A stretch of 63,709 bases of DNA, filler included. It is 8 parts of 8 records of this genome, joined end to end, with 100 filler letters (N's around TTAATTAATTAA, not from the genome) between each part and the next. Parts side by side here need not be neighbours in the genome. Positions count along the whole stretch, not along the records: positions 1 to 9,172 come from SRR31156797_67794; 7 more parts are not named here. The stretch is one strand, 5' to 3'. Below, one piece after another: positions 1 through 13,800 of the stretch. A program made the position numbers and the translations under genes. The stretch's first letter is position 1, and every line of letters starts with the position of its first letter. The notes beneath the pieces are model-generated. The model saw only the letters and a program-made list of their open reading frames with translations. It had not been told where the DNA came from and searched no databases.

Positions 1-291
1 ACGGTCTTTTACGTTTAGTATAAAAAAGGATTTGCTGAAATTTTGACAATAAGGATATTTTACAATTTTGTTGATTCGCCCGGTATTAAATTTATTCGGT
101 ATATTCTTTCTTTTTCAAAGGGAATGGGCCAACCCTATATTTTGCGGTCGAGGGAATTTTGAAGAAAGCGGTCAATCATAGCCATAACCATCTCCTTGCA
201 TTTTTTGATCTGGAATTCTATTTTGAGTAGTTTCAACTTTATAAAATTATTCTGTTCGATGTGTCTATCACTTTATGGACAGCTTTTTGTG

Positions 292-324
292 CCCCTTTCC
301 CTGTAGAGCATACAGGGGAAGGGG
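292..324. terminator. GC-rich hairpin just downstream of pntB, possible terminator
   Basis: CCCCTTTCCCTGTA-GAGCA-TACAGGGGAAGGGG, 14-bp stem with one wobble/mismatch, 6 nt after the pntB stop; no clean U-tract. Confidence 0.45.
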
Positions 325-330
325 AAAAGG

Positions 331-2352
331 TCAATTGACTGTTTTGAGGCCGTAGATCAGGTCCCCTGCCGTTGATGCCGCATCGCCCTCAAGCATAACG
401 GTTTTGGGGTTGTCGTACAGGGTGTTTTCCACACCAGAATAGCCAGGTTTTCTGTCAAAATTACAGACAATGACGTTGTCGGCTTTATGGGCAGAGAGAA
501 TGGGCATACCCGATATTGGCGTGCCGTCGGCTTCCATGGCAGCCGGGTTGACCACATCGCAGGCACCGAAAACGATGGCCACATCCGAGTTGGAAAATTC
601 GGGGTTGATGTCATCCATTTCGTAAAGCCGGTCATAATCCACTTCAGCCTCTGCCAGGAGCACATTCATATGACCCGGCATCCGACCGGCCACCGGGTGG
701 ATGGCAAACTTGACATCGGCCCCCTGCTGCTCCAGCATGCTGGCCAGTTCCACCACCTTGAACTGGGCCTGAGCCTGGGCCATGCCGTATCCGGGCACTA
801 CAATGACCTTTTTGGCGGCGGCCAGAGTGTTCACCGCCGTCTCCAATAGGTCCTGGGGGCCATCCGATTCAGCAGATGAGGCATCGACTGCTTTGGGCGG
901 TATATCCAGCAGGCGGTCCGCCAGTGTATGAACGCTCTCTTTGGCATCCCCGGACAGCATGATGGTATTTTCATTATAATATAGGAGGTTTTCTACCCCG
1001 GAATACCCCGGTTTTCTGTCCAGGTTGCAGCAGACCACGGTCCTTGACTCATGGGCCAGGAGTATGGGCATGCCGGAAATGGGGGAGTCGTCCGTCTGTA
1101 TGGCGGCGGGGTTGACCACATCGCAGGCCCCGATGATCAGGGTAAAATCCGTCTCCTTGAATTCATGGTTGATTTCGTCCATTTCAAAGAGCAGGTCATA
1201 ATCGATGCCGGCCTCTGCCAGGAGCACATTCATATGGCCGGGCATCCGGCCGGCCACGGGATGGATGGCAAATTTCACCTCCTTGCCCATGGCCGTCAGC
1301 TTCTGCACGAATTCAAGCACGGCAAACTGGGCCTGGGCAACGGCCATGCCGTATCCCGGTATAACAATGACCTTTTGGGCAGCGGCCGCCGCGTCTGCGG
1401 CCTCCCGGAACCGATCACCGACCTCCTTGCCGGCCGGGCCGGGGGGAACAGGGGCAGATTCCAGCTCTGAAACGCACCCGTCTTCAGCGGCTTCTTTACT
1501 GCCGCTGGAAGGTGCGGATGCCCGAGCGGCATGGATTCCGGGGATAAATATGTTTAAAAGGTTCCGGTTCATTGCCCTGCACATGACATGGGTGAGAATA
1601 CTGCCCGAGGCCGCCACGGTGGCACCGCAGGAGATCAAGAGTTTATTTTCAATGATCATGCCGCAGAAGGCCGCCGCAACACCGGCCGTGGCGTTCAAAA
1701 ACGAAATAAGCACCGGCATGTCGGCCCCGCCGATGCGCATGGAAAAAATGATCCCGAACAGGGCAGAGCTCAGAATGATGATAATATAAAGGGCCAACCG
1801 GCGGCTTTCGGGCACCACCAGGGCGGCGACGATCAGTCCCACCATCACCAGAAGGTTGGCCAGGGTCACCAGGTTATGGCGCTGTAAAACCACAGGTTTC
1901 TGGTTGAGTTTATTGGAGAGTTTACCGGCGGCCATGAGGCTGCCGCTGAATGTCAAAGCACCGATGGCCAGGCCCAGCAGGCCAGAAATTTCATTTAACA
2001 GCCCTAGGTGTCCGCTTCCCCGCATGAGTTCAGCCAGGGAAAGGGAAAAGGCGGCCACCCCGCCGGCACCGTGCTGAAAGGCCACCATGGCTGGTATCTG
2101 GATCATATCGATTTTCCTGGCCACCGCAATCCCTGGCAGGGCGCCGGCTATAAGACAGAAAACCAAAAGCCAGGGATATTGTGATCCGCTTCTGGCCAGA
2201 ACCAGGACGGCGGCACAGGCCAGGGCCAAGGCCGCGGCCAGGTTGCCGAATTTAGCCGTGAGGGGGCTGCCGAAAAGCCAGATTCCGGCAAGTAGGATGG
2301 CGATGACGGCAAAATCCAGGATGAGATTAAGTCCGGAGTATGTTTCCATCAC
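331..2352 (-). CDS. pntB: NAD(P) transhydrogenase subunit beta with two tandem dIII nucleotide-binding domains
   Basis: N-terminal multi-TM domain with IGGADMPV..FLN and MCRAMNR; PGYGMA..AQ / FAIHPVAGRMPGHMNVLLAEA occurs twice; 673 aa. Confidence 0.95.
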   Translation of the reverse strand: MMETYSGLNLILDFAVIAILLAGIWLFGSPLTAKFGNLAAALALACAAVLVLARSGSQYPWLLVFCLIAGALPGIAVARKIDMIQIPAMVAFQHGAGGVAAFSLSLAELMRGSGHLGLLNEISGLLGLAIGALTFSGSLMAAGKLSNKLNQKPVVLQRHNLVTLANLLVMVGLIVAALVVPESRRLALYIIIILSSALFGIIFSMRIGGADMPVLISFLNATAGVAAAFCGMIIENKLLISCGATVAASGSILTHVMCRAMNRNLLNIFIPGIHAARASAPSSGSKEAAEDGCVSELESAPVPPGPAGKEVGDRFREAADAAAAAQKVIVIPGYGMAVAQAQFAVLEFVQKLTAMGKEVKFAIHPVAGRMPGHMNVLLAEAGIDYDLLFEMDEINHEFKETDFTLIIGACDVVNPAAIQTDDSPISGMPILLAHESRTVVCCNLDRKPGYSGVENLLYYNENTIMLSGDAKESVHTLADRLLDIPPKAVDASSAESDGPQDLLETAVNTLAAAKKVIVVPGYGMAQAQAQFKVVELASMLEQQGADVKFAIHPVAGRMPGHMNVLLAEAEVDYDRLYEMDDINPEFSNSDVAIVFGACDVVNPAAMEADGTPISGMPILSAHKADNVIVCNFDRKPGYSGVENTLYDNPKTVMLEGDAASTAGDLIYGLKTVN

Positions 2353-2648
2353 AATTGCCCTCCTTTTTCTTCTTTTTTCCTGAACATACTGAGCATCCGG
2401 TCTGTGATGGCGAATCCGCCCACAAGGTTGAATGCGGCCATGATAAAGGCTACTGCTCCGATTCCTTGTTCTAAGGCCGTGGATTCAAAGCTGAACAGAA
2501 TCAATACCCCCAAAATAGTCACAGCCGAAATGGCATTGGTCATGGACATTAAAGGGGTGTGCAGCAGGGTGGGAATTCTTGAAATGAGGAAATATCCCAC
2601 CACAAAGGAAAAAATAAATACCCCTGTCAACAATAGAAGATTAATCAT
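2349..2648 (-). CDS. pntAB: NAD(P) transhydrogenase subunit alpha, membrane part (PntAB / alpha2)
   Basis: LHTPLMSMTNAIS and NLVGGFAITDRMLSMF motifs, 99 aa, 3 TM; stop overlaps the pntB start. Confidence 0.95.
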   Translation of the reverse strand: MINLLLLTGVFIFSFVVGYFLISRIPTLLHTPLMSMTNAISAVTILGVLILFSFESTALEQGIGAVAFIMAAFNLVGGFAITDRMLSMFRKKEEKGGQL

Positions 2649-2677
2649 ATTAGGTACTCCAAAAAGTCTATATATAA

Positions 2678-2708
2678 GGGCCCCAGGTTGCAGAACCCGG
2701 GGCCCCTG
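2678..2708. other. Intergenic hairpin between pntAA and pntAB
   Basis: AGGGCCCCAGGTT-GCAG-AACCCGGGGCCCCT near-perfect inverted repeat. Confidence 0.55.
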
Positions 2709-2735
2709 TGTTTTACACCATGGTAAGGTCGCCTG

Positions 2736-3896
2736 CTAATTAAGCTCCATTGCCTTGATGGTCCCCTTGTGCATCAGGTCCCCATTATGGGTAACCAGGG
2801 CCCCGGCTACAATTTCGTCATCCAGGTTAAAATCCTGGGTGCCGGGTTTGTGCAGGTTCTCAACGAAATAATAGAGGTTCTGGGCGTAGAGCCAGGAGGA
2901 ATGTACCGGCAGAGAACCCGGGATGTTTTTGATCCCGCAGATATACACCCCGTTGTGCACGGTTTCTTTTCCCGGATCGGTCAGTTCGCAGTTGCCCCCC
3001 TGGTCGATGGAGACATCCACAATGACAGACCCCGGTTTCATGCTTTCAACCATCTGCCGGGTGATGATGTGTTGGGCCACCTCCCCGGGGATCAAGGCCG
3101 AAAGAACTATGATGTCGGATTCAGCCACCAGGGGGGCCAGGGCCTCACGTTCCTTTTCAAGCCATTCCCTGGGAAGTGCCCTGGCATACCCGCCTTCACC
3201 CACGGCCAGTTCCGGTGGAACCTCAAATTCCGCCACTTTGACGCCCAGACTCTGGGCCTCATTTCTGGCGTCGGGCCGGATGTCAACGGCCGTTACCTGG
3301 CCGCCCAGCCGTTTACCTGTGGCAATGGCCTGGAGTCCGACGACGCCGGTGCCCACCACCAGAATTTTGGCCGGCTTGGTCATGCCGATGGAGGTGCCCA
3401 CCATGGGGATGAATTTGGGGTAATTGGCCGCGGCAATGATAATGGCTTTATAGCCTGTGATGGCGCTCATTGAGGTCAGGGGGTCCATGCGCTGGGCCCT
3501 GGAGATTCTGGGGATGCCGTCCATGGTAAAAGCTGTGACCTTTTTCCCCATCATCTTTTTCACATCCCCGTGGTTGGAGGGGGCTGCCGGGTGGAGAAAG
3601 GTCACCAGGGTCTGGCCCTCTTTGAGCATATCAATCTCGTGGCAGTCAAACGCCTCGTTGAACAGGGGTTCTTTTACCTTGAGGATGATATCTGCCTTGT
3701 CAAACACCTCTTTTGCATCTTTTGCGATGGCGGCACCGGCTTTTTCATAATCGGCATCGCCGGCAAAAGCTCCGCTGCCGGCCTGGGTTTCCACCAGTAC
3801 CTCAAAGCCCAGGGCTTTAAATTTTTCAACGGTTTCAGGCAGCGCAGCCACCCGATTTTCTTTGTACATGATCTCTTTTGGAATTCCTATGAGCAT
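2736..3896 (-). CDS. pntAA: NAD(P) transhydrogenase subunit alpha, soluble NAD(H)-binding domain dI (PntAA / alpha1)
   Basis: IGIPKE..ENRVA, PRISRAQRMD, GTGVVGLQA..D(I)R Rossmann motif, GGYAR, DQGGNC. Confidence 0.93.
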   Translation of the reverse strand: MLIGIPKEIMYKENRVAALPETVEKFKALGFEVLVETQAGSGAFAGDADYEKAGAAIAKDAKEVFDKADIILKVKEPLFNEAFDCHEIDMLKEGQTLVTFLHPAAPSNHGDVKKMMGKKVTAFTMDGIPRISRAQRMDPLTSMSAITGYKAIIIAAANYPKFIPMVGTSIGMTKPAKILVVGTGVVGLQAIATGKRLGGQVTAVDIRPDARNEAQSLGVKVAEFEVPPELAVGEGGYARALPREWLEKEREALAPLVAESDIIVLSALIPGEVAQHIITRQMVESMKPGSVIVDVSIDQGGNCELTDPGKETVHNGVYICGIKNIPGSLPVHSSWLYAQNLYYFVENLHKPGTQDFNLDDEIVAGALVTHNGDLMHKGTIKAMELN

Positions 3897-3939
3897 TTTT
3901 TTACTCCTGTCGATTCTTTACAGATTGGAAAATTTTTTA

Positions 3940-4389
3940 TCAGGCGGCTTTGCCGCCATGGCGCATTCGGTTCAGTGCGGTTTCCAGGGCATCGTGGAAT
4001 TTGGGGGGTTCCGGTGTATCAAGGTATTCCTCCAGCCCTTTTATTGTCCGTTTGATGAACCCGTTGACCTCATCCACATCCAGGTCTCTGCGGCCAACGA
4101 TTTTTTTTATAAGTTTTGAAAGGCCGTTCACAGCAAGGATTCTCACGTCGTAGTACAGGTCTTTCCGGCCCACAAGGGCATAGACTTCCTTTGCCAGTTC
4201 GACACCGGGCTCCCGGACAGATTCCAGGGCTTCAATGGCCGCCTCCCGAAGCCGCCAGTTCTGGTCAAACCGGAGCAGGCGGATCAGTTCGCCCTGATTG
4301 TTATCAAGCTTGTCATTTTTTTTAAGATCCTCCAGAATTTCCAGCGCATTCCCCCAGTCCATCAGATTCCCGAAATTCATATTTTCCAT
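3940..4389 (-). CDS. Small alpha-helical HEAT-repeat-like protein, first gene of the pnt operon
   Basis: 149-aa ORF with AGGAG RBS; two HEAT-like units (NWRLREAAIEAL; YYDVRILAVNGL). Confidence 0.65.
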   Translation of the reverse strand: MENMNFGNLMDWGNALEILEDLKKNDKLDNNQGELIRLLRFDQNWRLREAAIEALESVREPGVELAKEVYALVGRKDLYYDVRILAVNGLSKLIKKIVGRRDLDVDEVNGFIKRTIKGLEEYLDTPEPPKFHDALETALNRMRHGGKAA

Positions 4390-4505
4390 TTTATTCTCCT
4401 GAAGTTGTATTTTGTAATTGAATGCCCGGTTAACGGTCTAAACGGGCATGCCGTATCCCGGACAGGCCTGTGCACCGGCCTGTTTCCGGTTTAGGAATGA
4501 TATTG

Positions 4506-4520
4506 GCAAATTGCATGCCA
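4506..4520 (-). promoter_or_regulatory. sigma54 -24/-12 promoter for the HEAT-pntAA-pntAB-pntB operon
   Basis: Minus strand reads TGGCATGCAATTTGC (GG-N10-GC), about 115 nt upstream of the 4389 start, next to a sigma54 activator gene. Confidence 0.75.
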
Positions 4521-4601
4521 TCGGCAGGTAAAAGAGGTAATGCGCTGTAATTATAAGATTATTTTATTTTTTTCGGAAAGGGGGAGAGGATGAAGGACCG
4601 A

Positions 4602-4631
4602 TGCAATGTGCAATAGGTGTTGCACGTTGCA
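4602..4631. promoter_or_regulatory. Palindromic upstream activator sequence, candidate enhancer-binding-protein site
   Basis: TGCAATGTGCAATA-GG-TGTTGCACGTTGCA (12/14 inverted match), about 80-110 nt upstream of the sigma54 site with an AT-rich tract between. Confidence 0.6.
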
Positions 4632-4656
4632 CCACTCCATTTCAAAAAAGCTAGGG

Positions 4657-6027
4657 TTAATTAAGATTGAGCCGGTTCATGATCCGCCAGAGGGTAGAGC
4701 GGTCGATTCCCAGGAGCCTGGCGGCCTGGGTTTTATTCCGGCCAGTGAGGTCCAGCACTTTTTCAATATGATTATGGGTGAGCTGTTCAAGAGTTTCAAT
4801 GCCCTCTTTGCCCCCGCGGCTTTGGGGACGGGCAAAGGGATGGCGCAGGTGATCGGGCAGGCTGTCCACGGTGACCTCGCAGCTTTCCTCAAACAGAGTG
4901 GCCCGTTCAATTATATTTTCCAGCTCCCGGACATTTCCGGGCCATTCATAGGCCTCCAGCAACTCCAGGGTCTCCCGCCCGATCCGTTGGATGTTTTTGC
5001 CGTTCTCCGCCGCATACTGCTGGAGAAAATGCTGTGCCAGAAGGCCGATATCCCCCTTGCGGTCCCTTAGGGGCGGCAGCTCAATGGTCACCACGTTCAG
5101 CCGGTAATATAAGTCCTCTCGAAAGCTGCCGTCTTTGACCATGACCTCAAGATTCTTATGGGTGGCCGCAATCACCCTCACCGCCACTTTTTTCCGCTCA
5201 AAGGACCCAACGGGCTGAATTTCACCGCTCTCCAGCGCTCGCAGGAAGGCCTGCTGAAGCCCCATGCCGATGTCTCCAATTTCATCCAGGAATACCGTGC
5301 CGCCGTCCGCCGCCTCAAACAGGCCCTGCTTGGCAGAAACCGCACCGGTAAAGGCCCCTTTTGCGTGGCCGAATAATTCACTGGCCAGAAGGTTTTCATT
5401 TAGGGCCGCGCAGTTCACCGGCAGATAGGGGGTGCCGGCCTTGCGGCTGTTAAAGTGGATGGCCTTGGCCACCAGCTCCTTTCCCGTTCCGGTCTCCCCG
5501 CGGATGAGTACCGTTGTTTTGGAATCTTTGACATTGTTGATCACCTTGAACACCCGCATCATGGGTTCGCTGGTGCCGGTGATATTGTCAAAGGTGTATT
5601 TTTTTTTCAGCTGATCCTGGAGCCTTAAGTTCTGGAGAACCAGTGCCCTTTTTTCCAGGGTCTTTTTCACCACCAGGCGCAATTCATCCATGTCAAAGGG
5701 CTTTAGAATATAATCTTCGGCCCCGTATTTCATGGCCAACACCGCCGTATCCACGGTGCCGTAAGCGGTGATCATCAGCAAAAGGATATCCGGGTCATAG
5801 GCTTTTACGGCCTTGAGCAACTCCATCCCGTCGATGCCGGGCAGTTTGAGATCGGTGATGACCAGGTCATACCTGTGATCCGTTATTTTCTCCAGGGCCT
5901 TTTCCCCGGCATCTACGGACTGGACCTCATATCCTCGGCTCCCCAGGATGTGCATCAGTCCCTGGTTCATTTTTGGGTCATCTTCAACGATTAAAATTCG
6001 GTATTTATACATCATCTCTCCTGGCAT
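4657..6027 (-). CDS. sigma54-dependent NtrC-family response regulator (REC-AAA+-Fis HTH)
   Basis: [56 protein letters not shown]. Confidence 0.97.
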
Positions 6028-6033
6028 TTTTCA

Positions 6034-7677
6034 TCATTCAACGGGAAACTCAACAGTAAAAACTGTGCCGGTCCTGATGGCTTCACTGGATGTGGCGCTG
6101 ACCACCTTAAGGTCGCCCCCCAGCTTGCGTACCATTTCGTGGCTGACGAATAACCCCAGCCCGGTGCCCCGCCCCTGTTTTTTGGTGGTGAAAAACGGGG
6201 TGAAAATTTTGCTCAGCACCGGCCCAGGGATACCTGGGCCGGTATCCTGAACCTCAATTTTAACCATGTTCAACACTTTTACATAACGGGTTTTCAGCCT
6301 CAGATGCCCACCGCCGGGCATGGCTTCAATGGCGTTGGATACAAGGTTGGTCAAAATGGCCCTCACTGTGCTGGCATCGGCATTGACCCTGGGCATCCCC
6401 TTTTCCAGTCGCCACCTTACTTTTATGGCATGGGATTCACAATGGGGCCCGGCAATCTTCATCAGTTTTTCCAAGGTGGCGTTGACATCGGTTTTCAGCC
6501 CGTCCCGGCGGGAGTGGCGGGAAAATTCCAGAAGATTACGGATGATCTGGCTTCCCTGACGCACCTCTTCTACCACCGTGGAAAGCCGCTCCTGAACCGT
6601 ATCCACAGACGGGTCAGGCGTGTTCAAATCTTCTTTGGCAATCTGGGTGTACAGCAGGGCATTGGCAAGTGGCGTGTTCAATTCATGGGCCAGCCCCGAG
6701 GTCAGCAGCCCCAGGGAGGCCAGTTTTTCCTTCTGGATGACCTGGAATTCCAGTTCTTTTTCATATCGGTACTTGGATTTTAGAATATTGACAATGCCCA
6801 TGGAAACAAAAAGGGCCAGGCAAAGGACAATCAGGGCCGTCATCACGCCGTAGGCCACTGCATCACGGCCCATCTGCCGGATTCGTTCCAGGATTTCAGC
6901 CATGTCCTGGTCGGCCATGACATACCAGGGAAAGCCTTCAACTTTTTCATAGGCCTGGAGTACCCGCTTCCCACGGTAATCAATGGTTTCATATATCCCC
7001 TGCATCCGTCCCCGGACATCCTCCATTGAAATCCGGTCTTCAAACACCCGGGCCCCGAACCGAGATGTCGACAAAAACCACCCGGTGTCATCCACCAGAT
7101 AGACCTCCCCGGTCACTTCAATATTGCTCTTTCTAAGCAGGGTGTCGATTTGCCTGAAATCGATCAAGGCGCACAGATGGCCGCAGTTTTCCCCGCACTC
7201 CACCGGGGAACAGATCATCATGGCAGGCACCCGGTCATCCTCCCTGCTTAACATAAAAACCGTCCCTTCCCGGTGATGGCAGCCGTTGGCAAATAGACTC
7301 TCTCCGGCCGGGGATACCAGGGCTTCAAAATTTAAATCCAGGGTGGAAAATATGGGATGCCAGTCCCGGTCCAAAACAAAAAAAGAGAGATAGGGATGGG
7401 CTTTCATTTGCCCCAGATGGGAGAGAAGTTTTTCCCGGTCATATCCAAACATGAAGACTATGCTGGCCAGGCTGTTGATATCGCTGCGCCGCTCGGCAAT
7501 AAATTCCTGAATATCCTCTGCATTGCTCCGGGCCAGTCCCCTGAGGTAGGAGGATGATTTTTTTTCAATGAGGATCTGCCCCTGTGAGAGGATCTTGAAG
7601 CCCAGCGCCGCCAGGGGCAGCAGCGACACCATCATAAATGCGGCAATCAACAGCAGCCTGATCCGTTCAAAATTCAT
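6034..7677 (-). CDS. Membrane sensor histidine kinase with Cache-like periplasmic domain
   Basis: Two TM helices flanking a Cache-like region; H-box GLAHELNTPL; N, G1, F, G2 boxes (NAIEA, DTGPGI, PFFTTK, GTGLGL). Confidence 0.95.
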   Translation of the reverse strand: MNFERIRLLLIAAFMMVSLLPLAALGFKILSQGQILIEKKSSSYLRGLARSNAEDIQEFIAERRSDINSLASIVFMFGYDREKLLSHLGQMKAHPYLSFFVLDRDWHPIFSTLDLNFEALVSPAGESLFANGCHHREGTVFMLSREDDRVPAMMICSPVECGENCGHLCALIDFRQIDTLLRKSNIEVTGEVYLVDDTGWFLSTSRFGARVFEDRISMEDVRGRMQGIYETIDYRGKRVLQAYEKVEGFPWYVMADQDMAEILERIRQMGRDAVAYGVMTALIVLCLALFVSMGIVNILKSKYRYEKELEFQVIQKEKLASLGLLTSGLAHELNTPLANALLYTQIAKEDLNTPDPSVDTVQERLSTVVEEVRQGSQIIRNLLEFSRHSRRDGLKTDVNATLEKLMKIAGPHCESHAIKVRWRLEKGMPRVNADASTVRAILTNLVSNAIEAMPGGGHLRLKTRYVKVLNMVKIEVQDTGPGIPGPVLSKIFTPFFTTKKQGRGTGLGLFVSHEMVRKLGGDLKVVSATSSEAIRTGTVFTVEFPVE

Positions 7678-8194
7678 GGATTTCCCTTTTTATATTCCGT
7701 TCATCCCGTCTCCCCCCCCCTCGGCTCCAGGGAAATAGAACATATTTTTGTCTTTGGTACAACCTCAAAGCCAGTTCTCCTTTTTCCGGTTGAAAAAAGA
7801 GTAGTCTGGATCGGCCCCGGACACCATCACAGGCAATGGCAGCATGTAAGGCCGAAATAATGCCGTGGGCCGACGGCATATAAGATATGCTAAAAAGATA
7901 TTATACCGATGCGTGAAACTATCGGAATTACGTATGGCAACACGCTGCCTTGACAAAGCAACCGGTAACAATTTGATAGTGACCGAATTTTCCAGATGTG
8001 TCGAGGTTCCATTATAGCCTGGCCGCTGGAACAGCACGTCCTTTTTTGGGTCTTATCGGTGATTATGATCAAAACCACAAAAAGTAGGCCAAGAATTTAT
8101 GGTATAAGTCTCGGACTTTTTAGCATCAGGCCAACCATTAAATCTTAGGGTTGGCATTTTCCGGTTTCTGTGGAAAAGGAAAGAGTTTACATTC

Positions 8195-9037
8195 GGGGCT
8201 GTTTCTAAAAAAGTTTAAAATAATATAGACACTTGAAATGGGACATGATTTCGTCTTGTTTATGAACAGACACTCTATTTTAGATGAAAAATGGATGCAA
8301 ATAAAACCGATACTTGCACCACCGAAAAAAGAAACACTGGGCCGGAAACCAAAGGATAACCGACTAATGTTTTAAGGAATTTTGTGTGTTTTAAAAACTG
8401 GGGCTCCTTGGCGTGATCTTCCTGAAAGATTTGGGCCTTGGCAAACTGTGTATAAAAGATTTGAAAAAAGGACTTCTCTGGCAGCATGGGATGACCTTTT
8501 CAACAATGTTGCAAAGAATCAGGACAAAGGAGCCGGTATTATAGACGGTTCCTAGGTAAGATTTCACCAACACGGTTGCAGGGCAAGAGGAGGACAATAT
8601 TCTCAGGCTATTGGGCGAAGTAGAGGTGGTTTAACAACAAAAATCCATGCTGTCGTTGATGGCATCGGTAATCCAGTACGAATAAAACTGACCGGGGGTA
8701 ATGTTCATGACATGGTACCTTCTTATGATTTAATGGCTGACATAGAGGCAGATCAATTCCTTGCTGATAGGGCATATGATACGGACAAACTCATTGAAAT
8801 TGCAGAATCCAAAGGCTCTAAAGTCATTATCCCATCAAGAAGAAACAGAACGATTCAGAGAAAAATTGATAAACACCTTTATAAGGAACGACATTTGGTG
8901 GAGTGCTTTTTTTGCAAAAACAAAATCCTGTCGGCGAGTTTCAAATCGATATGAAAAATTCGCCAGAAATTATCATGCAATGGTGCTTATTGCATCTTGC
9001 TTGGTCTGGTTAGCATGATTTATTTAGAAACAGCCCC
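8195..9037 (+). mobile_element. Degenerate IS5-family (IS427-like) insertion sequence
   Basis: Perfect 15-bp terminal inverted repeats GGGGCTGTTTCTAAA (8195-8209) and TTTAGAAACAGCCCC (9023-9037), 843 bp, low GC. Confidence 0.9.
8262..9018 (+). pseudogene. IS5-family transposase pseudogene
   Basis: Translates MNRHSILDEKW..GRKPKDNRLMF*GIL..TGAPWRDLPERFGPWQTVYKRF, then GRSRGGLTTKIHA, ADRAYD, YKERHLVECFF, RYEK; in-frame stops and frameshifts. Confidence 0.9.
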
Positions 9038-9108
9038 TAGTATCCTGTTTTTCTGCAGCGCCGGCAGAAGTCGGAAAATATTGATCCTGGGGAAATACAG
9101 GGACAGGC

Positions 9109-9137
9109 TTGACCCCCTTTAAAAGGGGGTGTATTTT
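9109..9137 (+). promoter_or_regulatory. sigma70-like promoter with palindromic operator in the spacer; downstream gene lost at the contig end
   Basis: TTGACC-N17-TATTTT overlapping ACCCCCTTT-A-AAAGGGGGT (9112-9130); possible RBS and GTG start at 9168. Confidence 0.5.
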
Positions 9138-9172
9138 AAGACAAAATTAACCATAAGCGGGGATATCGTGAA

Positions 9173-9770: not shown

Positions 9771-10768
9771 TTTGAGGCTTCCAGACCGTCCATAAGCAGC
9801 TGCCGGGGAATTTTGTCCCACTCCCTGCGGTTGTCTTTGAATCGGAGCCTATGGCCCCAGACCGGAGCACCCAGGTCGAGAAGGTCCTGATCGACCACAT
9901 AATCCCGCCCCCGGATCACCGCCAGGGTCCGGGCCGCCTGAATCAGATGGAGGGTTCCCCGGGGGGAGATCCCCAGGACAACCGATTTATGACGCCGGCT
10001 CTCGTCCGCCGCCGCCACTGCCGCCCGGATAAGCGTCTCGTCACAGAAAACCGCGGCCGTATACTGTCTGCAGGCCAGAAGGTCTTTTCGGGTAATCACC
10101 GGCTTCAAAGCCGGAAGCTCACTTTCCGAGGGATTGGCCGTTACGATCTCCGTCTCGGCGGCCCTGTCGGGGTAACCGATCGACAGGCACATCAGAAACC
10201 GGTCCACCTGCGCCGCCGGAAGAAGGTAGGTCCCTTCGATCTCCAGAGGATTCTGGGTGGCCATGACGAAAAAGAGATCGTCCATCTTATGGGTCTTGTT
10301 CCCGACGGTCACCTGATGCTCGGCCATCACCTCCAGAAGGGCCGACTGGACCTTGGGTCCCGCCCTGTTGATCTCGTCGGCCAGGAGAATCTGGGAAAAA
10401 ACCGGTCCCGGAGAGAACTTGAATTTCCGAGTATCGGGATTGAAGATTTCGACCCCGGTAATATCGTAGGGAAGGAGATCAGGAGTGAACTGAATACGCT
10501 GAAAGGCCGCCGCCTTGCCTCTGAGGGAAGTGTCCGATCCGGAAATCAGCTTCGCCAGAGACTTGGCCACCGTCGTCTTTCCCAGCCCCGGCAGGTCTTC
10601 CAGAAGGACATGCCCCCCGGAAAACAGGGAACAGACAAGAAACTGAAGAAACTCATGCTTCCCGCGGATAACCCTCTCCAGGGAGGAGACAAGATTCTCC
10701 GCGGCTTCGGTAACGGCTTCCCGGGTCGGAAGCCCGGTGATTTTTGAACCGGTAGTAATTTTTGCCAT
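9767..10768 (-). CDS. MoxR-family AAA+ ATPase
   Basis: HVLLEDLPGLGKT, RIQFTPDLLPYD, LADEINRA, ATQNP.E.EGTY.LP.AQ.DRF, SPRG. Confidence 0.95.
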   Translation of the reverse strand: MAKITTGSKITGLPTREAVTEAAENLVSSLERVIRGKHEFLQFLVCSLFSGGHVLLEDLPGLGKTTVAKSLAKLISGSDTSLRGKAAAFQRIQFTPDLLPYDITGVEIFNPDTRKFKFSPGPVFSQILLADEINRAGPKVQSALLEVMAEHQVTVGNKTHKMDDLFFVMATQNPLEIEGTYLLPAAQVDRFLMCLSIGYPDRAAETEIVTANPSESELPALKPVITRKDLLACRQYTAAVFCDETLIRAAVAAADESRRHKSVVLGISPRGTLHLIQAARTLAVIRGRDYVVDQDLLDLGAPVWGHRLRFKDNRREWDKIPRQLLMDGLEASK

Positions 10769-10864
10769 AGCTTAAGTGTAGCACATCGGAGGAATTTTTC
10801 CGAGAAGCGAATGGGAAAAAGCAGAAACCGATCGGGGATGATGACAGAGAGATCGCCGTCGGTC

Positions 10865-13800
10865 TCAGCCGCGGGAAGCCTCCCCGATGGTCCCGGCAGG
10901 TGCGGAAAACTGCAGTTCTTCCACCGAGCCGTCCCGGAGGTAGCAGACGAAAGCCCTGATTTCAGGAGCATTGTCTGACCCGGCCGCCTGCTCCATTCCC
11001 CGGACCGCTTCCGCGTAGAGGTCCAACTGGGCGAAGTGCTCCTCCGGCTCCCTGAACCGGTCGGTTTTGAAATCGATCACCCGAATTTCCACCGGCCGGC
11101 CGTCGGCTCCCTGAGCCTTCGAACGGGCCAAAAGGTCGATCTGCCCCCGCAGGAAAACCTCATCCTTTTTCATCAGAAAGGAGACCTCCGCCTCCAGTTC
11201 AAACCCGTCGCGCAGTTCTTCGGCAAAGGGGGTGGCAAAAAAGTGGCCGCAGAGAGTCTCGCCGTCGGCGATCAGCTGCCGGGCCTCCGCTGCCGGAAGA
11301 TCAGCCAGGAGAGCCTCTTTCCTGCCGGGGATGAGAGGTCCGCCCCAGCCCTCCTCCATAATGATGTGACAGAGGGTTCCGAAGCGGGTCTCCAACTCCT
11401 TCTCCCGGATCACAGGGTCGCTCTTCAGGGCGGGAAGCTCCTCAAACTGGGCCGAATCGCCGCGACGTACGGAAACGCCCTCTACAGGAACTCCGGTGGT
11501 TTCAGGTTCCATCCAGTCAAAGGTCTGCTGGCCACCGGCCGGAGGAGTGGCTTCCCGGGGAACATCGAAAACCGGGGACTTATCGCTCCCGGCCTGGGGC
11601 CCGGTCCGCTCCTCACGGATCCAGCCGGTGACGGGAAACTCATCCACCGGAATCTTCCGGTCCAGAACCGCCGCCCGTCCGTATTGAACCAGAGCCGAAT
11701 CGGCATCGATGGGCCTGAGTCCTCTCATGAGAGAAAAACTCTCCTCCCGGCTCACCGGATCCATTACCTCGACGATCTCCTGGAGGTCGGGGATGATAAG
11801 GGGATCGGTCTTGGCCTGCCACCCGAATCCCATCAGAAAAAGGTTGAGAAGATTATTGGGTTTGGACTGGTTCCGGGATGTGTGACGGCCGGCAAGGATG
11901 AGGTGACATTCGGACCGGGTCAGGGCAACATAGAGGAGTCGCTTCATCTCCGCCAGTTCCCGTTCGGCTTCCTCTTTCTCCATTTCCGCGTAGACCGGGT
12001 TCCCGAGCTTGTTTCCTTCGGCGTCCTCCAGCTTGAGGGAAATTCCCAAATCCGGATGAAAATAAAAAGGAGATCTTTTGTCCCCGCCGGTGACGCCGAC
12101 GGAGCCGCAGTCGGCGAGGATGGTCACGGGAAACTCCAGCCCTTTGGAGGCGTGGACTGTCATGATGGAGACACCGGGACTCTTCCTCTTTAAGACAGCC
12201 AGTTCATCGAGTTTCTTGTTCTGCCCCAGATTCGGCCGGAGTTCATCGAGGAAACCCGCCAGGGTCAGCCCCCGTTCATCCGCCGAAAGGGCCAGGGCGG
12301 AAAGGTAGTCATAGTACTCGAGGTAGTGGTGGTAGGCGGGGTTCTTGAGCAGAGTAAAACGGTACCCCCTGTCGTACCAGATCCACCGGATGAGTTCGGC
12401 CAGGGGGATCCGATCAGCCCGATCCAGACAGCCCTGATAGAGTTCGGCTGCCGTTTTCAGCTTTTCCCGATCCTCCTCCCGCAGAGCCAGTTCAAAACTC
12501 TTCTCTTCAAAGGGCAGCCCCTCCTGATTCAGAAGGAGCCGGATCATCGAGTCATCCCCGAGGTTGACGAAGGGGGAGCGCAGCAGGGCAGTATAGGCGT
12601 TCGGATCCTCCGGATAGACTGTCAGCTGCAGAAGGGCGTAGATGTCGTTTGCTGGAGCCTCCATAAAGAGGGAGCGCACATCGGCGACATCGTAGGGGAT
12701 ACCCATATTCCGGAAGTACTTCTCATAGACAAACTGGTTGGAGCCTGATCGGAAAAGGACGGCGAAGTCATCGTAGCCCGCCGGCCGCCTCTCGCCCTCC
12801 CGGAAAACCTCGAGGTCTCCGGCCTCCACCCGCTCGCGGATGTAGCGGGCGATATGAAAGGCCTCCAGATCCTTTGCCGGGATATTCCGGGGATCGGGTA
12901 CCGATTTGTCCTCTTCGGCGTAAAAGAGTTTGATCACCGGCGGCTTCGTCAGATTGGCGTTTCGGCTCTCCAGAGGCTGAAATCCCGCCTCGTACTCCTC
13001 CAGGCCCGCCCCCATGATGGCAGGGAAAATCTCGTTAAAGAATTCAATCAGTCCGGGTTCGGAACGGTAGTTTGTGTCCAGGGCGATCTTCTCCCCGCCG
13101 CAGGATTCCAGTTCACCGCTTAAGCCCTTGAAAACAGAAACATCGGCTCCCCGAAATCGATAAATCGACTGCTTCTCATCTCCCACAAAGTAGAGCTTCT
13201 CCTTTGCCAGATCCTCAGGCTCCGGCATGCCCTCCGCCTCCCGGGCCTCATCCTCGGCCAGGAGAAAGAGGAGATCCTTCTGAAGCCGGTTGTTATCCTG
13301 AAACTCATCGATCATGATAAACCGGAACTTCTTCTTGTAGTGCCGTCGCAGGTTGTGGTTGTTTTTGAGGATGGCCACAGCCAGTTCCATGACGTCCTGG
13401 AACGAGAGGAGTCCGGAACTGCGCTTCTTTTTCAGCAGCCGCTCCTGGTAGTCGGCGGCCAGCTCGGCGACCCGGCCGATATGCTCCCTGTTTTCAAGAA
13501 CCGCGCAGCAGCCGGCGGTCTGAACCATCACCGGTTTGAACTCGGCCATCAGATCCTTCAGGGCGACCATCGGCGGTTTGGAGACATTGCCCAGGGCTCG
13601 GATCCCGGCAATCGCCGAATATCTCCGCCCCAGGGCAGGCCACTCCTCCGCCTCCAGAAGTGCCTGAACATCATCACATTCCGCCAGTTTGGCCGTCAGG
13701 GTTTCAAAACTCTTACCCGTAGCCCCGTTCAGCTCACCGGCCAGAACGGCGTACTGCTCCAGGGCTTCCACCCCCTTCTTCACCCGCTTGGCCATCGTTT

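Follow-up and report, generated by a model that had tools for sequence, protein, structure and literature searches.

Mechanistic models of transhydrogenase assume one dIII domain per protomer and attribute coupling to the two dIII of a dimer taking turns at the dI and dII sites. What, then, would a beta subunit (PntB) do with more than one dIII? The question is raised by a pntB gene found in a 63,709-nucleotide stretch of DNA (hereafter the window), which consists of eight parts from eight records of one genome, joined end to end with 100 filler letters between each part and the next. The gene lies in the first part, positions 1 to 9,172, which comes from SRR31156797_67794. An earlier note on this DNA had described the product as a PntB with two tandem dIII. 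We found that this architecture is real and that similar arrays of two to five dIII occur in a subfamily of PntB. The reading that we favour, with a probability of about 0.5, is that the dIII of an array are equivalent mobile NADP(H) carriers, strung together in variable number.

Two dIII domains in the PntB of the window

The Pfam profile PNTB (PF02233) matched the 673-residue protein at an E value of 1.4e-219 in two stretches, one of which (15-478) includes the membrane domain dII; a scan with this profile for a double C-terminal dIII had been proposed in the earlier note. The motifs PGYGMA, HPVAGRMPGHMNVLLAEA, DVVNPAA, GMPIL, and KPGYSG each occurred twice, 188 residues apart, and every motif claimed for the two copies was present in both. 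The copies were delimited at positions 922-1416 and 358-852, close to the limits given before (925-1385 and 334-825), and the Pro/Ala/Ser-rich linker described behind dII was seen at about residues 270-312. When aligned without gaps, the two dIII shared 104 of 165 residues (63%) and 333 of 495 bases (67%), and the identities at the first, second, and third codon positions were 0.73, 0.80, and 0.48, respectively. At the DNA level they formed a direct repeat with a period of 564 nucleotides (nt), with identities of 70% across a 300-nt stretch and 79% across a 76-nt stretch; the longest exact word common to both copies was 26 nt. The nonsynonymous (dN) and synonymous (dS) distances between the copies were 0.29 and 1.23 by the method of Nei and Gojobori. 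Judged from these sequences, the duplication in the window lineage is old, with synonymous sites near saturation and both copies under purifying selection. A six-frame scan of the whole window detected no further dII or dIII.

An error of assembly or gene calling could also produce such a gene. Nothing in the window points to one, and the suspicious cases were found among relatives: P0390 is identical to P0090 except for the lack of 76 internal residues, with 100% identical flanks, and P0371 is a chimeric open reading frame (ORF), so that both look artefactual. However, 33% of the bases differ between the two window copies. The junction also recurred in 96 of 120 independent relatives, including P0025 and P0114 on 6.0-Mb contigs. 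These 120 were the best relatives ranked by dII alone, a ranking that removes the bias towards multi-copy proteins, and the 96 had two full copies. An artefact is thus extremely improbable. The earlier statement that the repeat is neither a fresh duplication nor an assembly echo agrees with the 48% identity at third codon positions and with the recurrence of the junction. These results confirm the two-dIII architecture of the window PntB.

We next considered the predicted structure. The AlphaFold2 model, built with 99 relatives, had a mean predicted local distance difference test score (pLDDT) of 84.4, and both dIII were confident. Values of pLDDT below 50 were confined to residues 275-309 and 487-498, and a model of the tandem part only had low confidence at its residues 180-194, which correspond to tether 2. 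Among the 99 relatives, tether 1 ranged from 22 to 60 residues and tether 2 from 15 to 39, and their sequences also varied. In a Foldseek search, the model matched Escherichia coli PntB (9l76_A) at an E value of 9e-32. Crystal structures of isolated dIII superposed on the model with template modelling (TM) scores of 0.92-0.94 and a root-mean-square deviation of ~1 Å, and dII superposed on the Thermus thermophilus dII structures with TM scores of 0.89-0.92. No chain in the PDB spanned both dIII together, the best TM score normalised to the tandem model being 0.45. A single dIII per chain was present in all 16 distinct PDB sequences matched and in all fold matches, as the earlier note had stated for characterised enzymes. 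The dII channel residues D211, N220, S138, and R263 were invariant in the 99 sequences. H94, which aligns with E. coli H91, a residue whose role in dII is described in PMC9529548, was His in 78 and Asn in 21 of the 99 relatives.

Distribution, gain, and loss of dIII units

When the tandem part (residues 300-673) was used as a query, 8000 candidates were scored, and the best 120 were all multi-dIII proteins, with two (96 proteins), three (20), or four copies (4). Among the 95 matches listed from a search of longer proteins, five consisted of dII followed by five dIII, 88 were eukaryote-type single-chain proteins with one dIII, and two had no full-length match. An exhaustive search of 50%-identity representatives returned 4230 proteins at E ≤0.001 and 711 at E ≤1e-30. 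In the best 150 of the 4230, at least two dIII matches were found in 22, and 14 of these had at least two full copies. By this count, only a small fraction of PntB are multi-copy at 50%-identity clustering. The source labels of multi-copy proteins were Desulfobacter, Desulfobacula, Desulfotignum (including D. phosphitoxidans), Desulfosarcina, Desulfococcaceae, Desulforhopalus, Desulfopila, and Firmicutes/Bacillota genomes, and the nearest named relative of the window PntB was a Desulfobacter protein with 75% identity. A genome scan gave at least 80 loci; 78 of the 80 listed had a single dIII, and the multi-copy loci among them were L001, from a Desulfobacterales genome, and L002, from a Treponema genome. 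Four database proteins (P0005, P0014, P0123, and P0130) had two to four dIII units and no dII; P0123 starts with a linker-like N terminus, and P0005 and P0014 start inside dIII at an internal Met. These dII-less proteins may reflect split genes or wrongly called start codons, or they may be soluble proteins made up of several dIII.

The relationships among units were examined in two kinds of tree. Of the 84 multi-copy units in a tree of 205 dIII units, 80 fell into one clade with 99% support, as did 41 single-dIII proteins. Inside this clade, the units of one protein were nearest kin in ~15 proteins, often with a single-dIII protein as sister, and units identical at the protein level were found in P0013 and among copies 2-4 of P0005. 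The second tree was built from dII only, which lies outside the repeat. It required at least 15 changes between single and multiple copies, 8 of them forced by well-supported branches, although P0134 was scored as single despite being a truncated two-copy protein, which may have inflated the count by one. On the same tree, the number of dIII copies had to change at least 21 times. Furthermore, near-identical dII were joined to different numbers of dIII, three in P0017 and two in P0127, and four in P0008 and three in P0028. According to these trees, the origin of arrays or a change in their size occurred on many occasions within a single PntB subfamily.

Loop E of dIII reads N443-L444-D445 in copy 1 (window positions 1018-1026) and N631-F632-D633 in copy 2 (454-462), where E. 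coli PntB has K424-R425-S426. In a hydrogen-exchange study (PMC9529548), the KRS motif in loop E is described as belonging to the NADP(H) site, and the preference for NADP(H) is attributed to loops D and E. The N-x-D motif was common to nearly all multi-copy units and to part of the single-dIII representatives. The 80 genome loci listed comprised 76 single KRS or KRG types, two double N-x-D types, one single N-x-D type, and one ambiguous case. Against the NCBIfam equivalog NF006974, the window PntB scored 523.5 bits, below the cut-off of 689. The Asp at the position of Ser426 raises the question of nucleotide preference in the subfamily, and the N-x-D subfamily, which is the home of nearly all arrays, may have an altered preference. 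This residue-level comparison with solved chains covers E. coli and T. thermophilus, which are of the KRS/KRG type. The median anchor distance across the first tether was 51-52 in the N-x-D group vs 39 in KRS-type single-dIII PntB, and the spacing between dIII units was 39-41. A link between extra copies and a longer first tether was rejected, since the single-dIII N-x-D members also have the long tether. In P0137, which is of the KRS type, and in P0138, the motifs of the second dIII were eroded and the branches leading to it in the 205-unit tree were very long; these second dIII are candidates for non-catalytic extra domains.

The conservation of the two copies was then compared. In a tree of 270 dIII units, the first copies of 97 two-copy proteins grouped together with a support of 96, in a clade that also held both leading copies of seven Desulforhopalus-type three-copy proteins. 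The 97 second copies grouped with the last copy of those seven proteins with a support of 99. These separate orthologous clades in the Desulfobacterales lineage of the window point to one old inherited duplication and one later duplication of copy 1. Across the 97 proteins, the mean pairwise identity was 0.748 for copy 1 and 0.761 for copy 2. Columns conserved at ≥90% numbered 92 of 166 in copy 1 and 89 in copy 2, with 75 in common, and at this threshold no column was conserved but different between the copies. The core motifs PGYGMA and HPVAGRxPGH and the loop-D Asp were present in both copies and conserved throughout the 97 proteins.

Codon-level tests covered three genes, those of the window, L001, and L002, and synonymous sites were saturated between the window and either of the other two. 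The L001 copies were 63-66% identical to the window copies in all four pairings, and copy-for-copy orthology is not clear. In L002, the copies were 97% identical at the protein level while 38% of their synonymous sites differed (dN 0.011, dS 0.54), giving a dN/dS ratio (omega) between copies of ~0.02. The near-identity of the L002 proteins together with the synonymous divergence excludes an assembly echo, and the synonymous divergence excludes gene conversion as the cause of the similarity. At the codon level, this comparison shows strong selection on both L002 copies. The neutral drift of one copy, which the earlier note had named as evidence that would refute its interpretation, was rejected, because the two copies are equally conserved and the dN/dS values indicate purifying selection.

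We also investigated relatives with one dIII. The 120 relatives ranked by dII included six fragments or truncated proteins and 18 with one full dIII; 4 of the 18 seem to end prematurely behind copy 1, and the remaining 14 seem complete. Eight one-dIII proteins were compared with their nearest two-copy neighbours. Six combined a copy-1-like N-terminal helix with a copy-2-like body, and two were copy-2-like throughout. In four pairs, the missing stretch corresponded to one unit, and the junction lay in or beside the PGYGMA motif, which is the most DNA-similar part of the window repeat. One-copy hybrids of this kind would be the expected residue of unequal recombination; an assembler jump at a shared word (≤26 nt in the window) could give an equal picture for the one-copy forms.

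Copy number might be no more than a nearly neutral by-product of unequal recombination, in which extra dIII are tolerated passengers. The different copy numbers found with near-identical dII (P0017/P0127 and P0008/P0028) would fit this explanation, as would recurrent loss with junctions at PGYGMA, and the apparent losses show that the second unit is not essential everywhere. However, both copies of the window lineage were retained towards synonymous saturation under purifying selection, the L002 copies have an omega of 0.02, and 96 of the 110 complete near relatives retain both copies. A passenger should also gather disabling changes, and these were seen in P0137 and P0138 alone. We regard the neutral explanation as quite improbable.

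Possible roles of the array

The earlier note had offered three roles for two tethered dIII: a division between them of hydride transfer and channel gating, a changed stoichiometry, and a regulatory nucleotide sensor. A division of roles was not borne out. At ≥75% conservation in each copy, three positions differed between the copies among 99 two-copy proteins, none did at 90%, and the two proteins' worth of dIII residues in other lineages agree at 97-100% of positions.

In a related explanation, one dIII would be catalytic and the other would be an accessory module, either a sensor or buffer of NADP(H)/NADP+ or a plug of dII, that regulates the enzyme. The behaviour of the E. coli protein is compatible with this: in the face-down position, its dIII acts as a plug in the proton channel, and its detachment is under the control of ligand binding (PMC13635403). 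The predicted TM score (pTM) of 0.75 for the tandem-only model hints at a defined pairing, and the three mildly copy-specific positions and the degenerate second copies in the P0137 and P0138 lineages point in the same direction. By contrast, all conserved motifs are kept in both copies of the window lineage, where no column is conserved but different at 90%. The copies are also 92-100% identical at the protein level in many lineages, which leaves no specialisation there, and a single sensor fails to explain arrays of three to five copies. We therefore consider an accessory module rather unlikely. A regulatory sensor, as suggested earlier, fits poorly with the window lineage, in which both copies keep the catalytic and nucleotide-site motifs, and is possible for the lineages of P0137 and P0138.

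The reading of the array as a string of equivalent carriers is favoured because the units are equally conserved, the tethers are flexible and variable, dI is soluble and separately encoded, and the copy number ranges from 1 to 5. In the known cycle, dIII lies face-down on dII and plugs the channel; after detaching, it turns towards dI, where hydride is transferred (PMC13635403). Within the dimer, the two dIII are proposed to go through this cycle in antiphase, one being face-up while the other is face-down (PMC10127272). Each dIII unit of an array would run this normal cycle, docking face-down with dII when nucleotide exchange is coupled to protons and face-up with dI when hydride is transferred. 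In the canonical dimer, the alternation is divided between two protomers; with two or more units per protomer, the docking sites on dI and dII would be idle less often, and this would give a higher throughput per membrane channel. Unequal recombination between units would determine how many there are, and selection would maintain that number. Of the three roles proposed earlier, a changed stoichiometry fits best.

A further proposal, which we put forward tentatively, is that tandem dIII act as a multiplex hydride carrier in which all dI and dII sites could be occupied at once and antiphase alternation would not be needed. Copy number, adjusted quickly by unequal recombination, would then tune the rate per proton channel and perhaps also how tightly, or in which direction, coupling runs in low-energy anaerobes.

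Several observations weigh against the carrier-string reading. Some genomes do without the second unit: one dIII is present in 14 of the 110 complete near relatives, so that the free loss of a copy, the other outcome that the earlier note had named as refuting, is found in part, alongside the 96 that keep both. These 14 proteins are scattered over the dII tree, with 13 changes, at least 9 of them forced, compared with a mean of 16.1 after shuffling; P0383, which is among the 14, comes from a contig of 3.76 Mb. P0137 and P0138, from two distant lineages, carry a degenerate second copy, so extra copies are not always catalytic. The pTM of the tandem folded alone is above the expectation for fully independent domains, and the dIII units may pack against each other. 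In addition, pntAA is the sole dI gene in the window, with one dI gene per operon, and the KRS motif, part of the NADP(H) site, is absent from both window copies, a difference that bears on the nucleotide specificity of the subfamily.

Operon context and comparison with known systems

The features of the region are listed in Table 1. The partner genes pntAA and pntAB lie immediately upstream of pntB, as expected for a three-gene proton-translocating NAD(P) transhydrogenase, and the GTG start codon of pntB overlaps the stop codon of pntAB.

Table 1. Features of the pnt region, with positions in the window, strand, and basis of assignment
Feature	Positions	Strand	Basis
pntB, 673 residues: dII, tether, dIII copy 1, tether, dIII copy 2	331..2352	-	ORF; Pfam PF02233; Foldseek
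dII membrane domain, residues 1-275, nine predicted helices	1528..2352	-	AlphaFold2 helices H2-260; match to T. thermophilus dII
Tether 1, residues 276-312, Pro/Ala/Ser/Glu-rich, predicted disordered	1417..1527	-	pLDDT <50; length across relatives
dIII copy 1, residues 313-477	922..1416	-	Motifs; AlphaFold2; ungapped alignment to E. coli PntB 308-458
Tether 2, residues 478-500	853..921	-	pLDDT <50; length across relatives
dIII copy 2, residues 501-665	358..852	-	Motifs; AlphaFold2; T. thermophilus PntB 279-449, E 8.7e-53
pntAB, 99 residues, four-transmembrane part of alpha subunit	2349..2648	-	Pfam PNTB_4TM, E 2.4e-28
pntAA, 386 residues, soluble NAD(H)-binding dI	2736..3896	-	Pfam AlaDh_PNT_N/C; NCBIfam PRK09424 positions 1-367
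Small HEAT-repeat ORF, 149 residues, heads the apparent operon	3940..4389	-	Pfam HEAT_2, E 1.8e-7
Sigma-54-type -24/-12 element, TGGCAT-N5-TTGC	4505..4520	-	Pattern search; ~116 nt upstream of HEAT ORF
NtrC-type sigma-54 response regulator adjoining the operon	4657..6027	-	Pfam Response_reg, Sigma54_activat, HTH_8
dCache sensor histidine kinase	6034..7677	-	Pfam dCache_1, HisKA, HATPase_c

The sigma-54 pattern was not enriched across the window (24 matches vs 29.6 expected), and the element upstream of the HEAT-repeat ORF is notable through its position alone, which is suggestive. The pnt operon may be under two-component, sigma-54 control. Scans for sigma-70 promoters and terminators gave nothing convincing at the operon ends. 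Directly past the pntB stop codon, a G+C-rich imperfect inverted repeat was observed at 287-325 on the minus strand, with no T run after it and no hit in the terminator scan. Window positions 1-330 are AT-rich and non-coding, and no gene lies downstream of pntB there.

The layout at L001 was the same, consisting of a sigma-54 activator, a 144-residue ORF, pntAA, pntAB, and a two-dIII pntB. The product of the 144-residue ORF (5363-5797) was 40% identical to that of the window HEAT-repeat ORF (E 1e-28) and occupied the equivalent position. A small ORF of this type was not found at the other 79 loci listed, among which the L002 sequence begins at the pntB start, leaving its upstream region unseen. 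The HEAT-repeat product may be an accessory factor. Its look-alikes in a protein atlas were small uncharacterised proteins, commonest in Thermodesulfobacteriota and Planctomycetota. At L001, a gene of the Glu/Leu/Phe/Val dehydrogenase family (9821-11107, plus strand) follows directly and overlaps the end of the two-dIII pntB; the window pntB has no neighbour of this kind.

The repeated-dIII arrangement appears to be unreported: no publication on it was found in the literature searched, in which subscription journals are thinly covered, so an earlier mention is possible. In its available text, a paper on sulfate reducers records the mere presence of pntAB, noted for Desulfobacterales (PMC4969296), and the database label of all these proteins is plain "subunit beta." Natural chains with two to five dIII offer a direct test of whether dIII works as an independent carrier and whether antiphase alternation between protomers is required. 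Matched natural genes with one, two, and three copies exist for such a comparison, and cultured hosts include Desulfotignum phosphitoxidans (two copies) and isolates of Desulforhopalus and Desulfopila (three copies). The finding also draws attention to a large PntB subfamily of anaerobes without KRS, to which neither of the solved chains aligned here, those of E. coli and T. thermophilus, belongs.

The closest known system is the three-subunit transhydrogenase of T. thermophilus (4O9U) and Rhodospirillum rubrum. Its gene set and gene order are those of the window (pntAA, pntAB, and pntB), dII and each window dIII superpose on the solved structures, and both window copies conserve PGYGMA, HPVAGRMPGH, and an Asp (D411 in copy 1 and D599 in copy 2) at the position of E. 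coli D392. However, the window beta chain has two dIII instead of one. The window type further differs from KRS-type single-dIII PntB in its longer dII-dIII tether (median anchor distance 52 vs 39) and from the E. coli and T. thermophilus chains, which have KRS or KRG, in its loop E of N-L/F-D. Single-dIII N-x-D PntB stand nearer, sharing with it the well-supported clade of the 205-unit tree (41 single and 80 multi-copy entries, 99% support), the loop-E motif, and the long tether. They differ by one dIII, and some appear to be derived from two-copy genes by the loss of exactly one unit.

Eukaryotic single-chain NNT, with its alpha-beta and beta-alpha isoforms, represents another rearrangement of the same three domains (PMC7614955); the available text of that survey deals with domain order alone. 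Eukaryote-type single-chain enzymes, 88 of the 95 long matches listed, have one dIII, unlike the five prokaryote-type proteins with five dIII. Outside transhydrogenases, the tandem acyl carrier proteins (ACPs) of polyunsaturated fatty acid (PUFA) synthases are alike in outline, with near-equivalent mobile domains, flexible linkers, and a variable copy number. They are described as beads on a string (PMC3585217), and the output of the synthase is reported to rise with the number of ACP domains (PMC5067506). These ACPs have no homology to dIII and carry a covalent prosthetic group, whereas the nucleotide of dIII is dissociable. By analogy with the PUFA synthases, the number of dIII units may have a dose effect on transhydrogenase.

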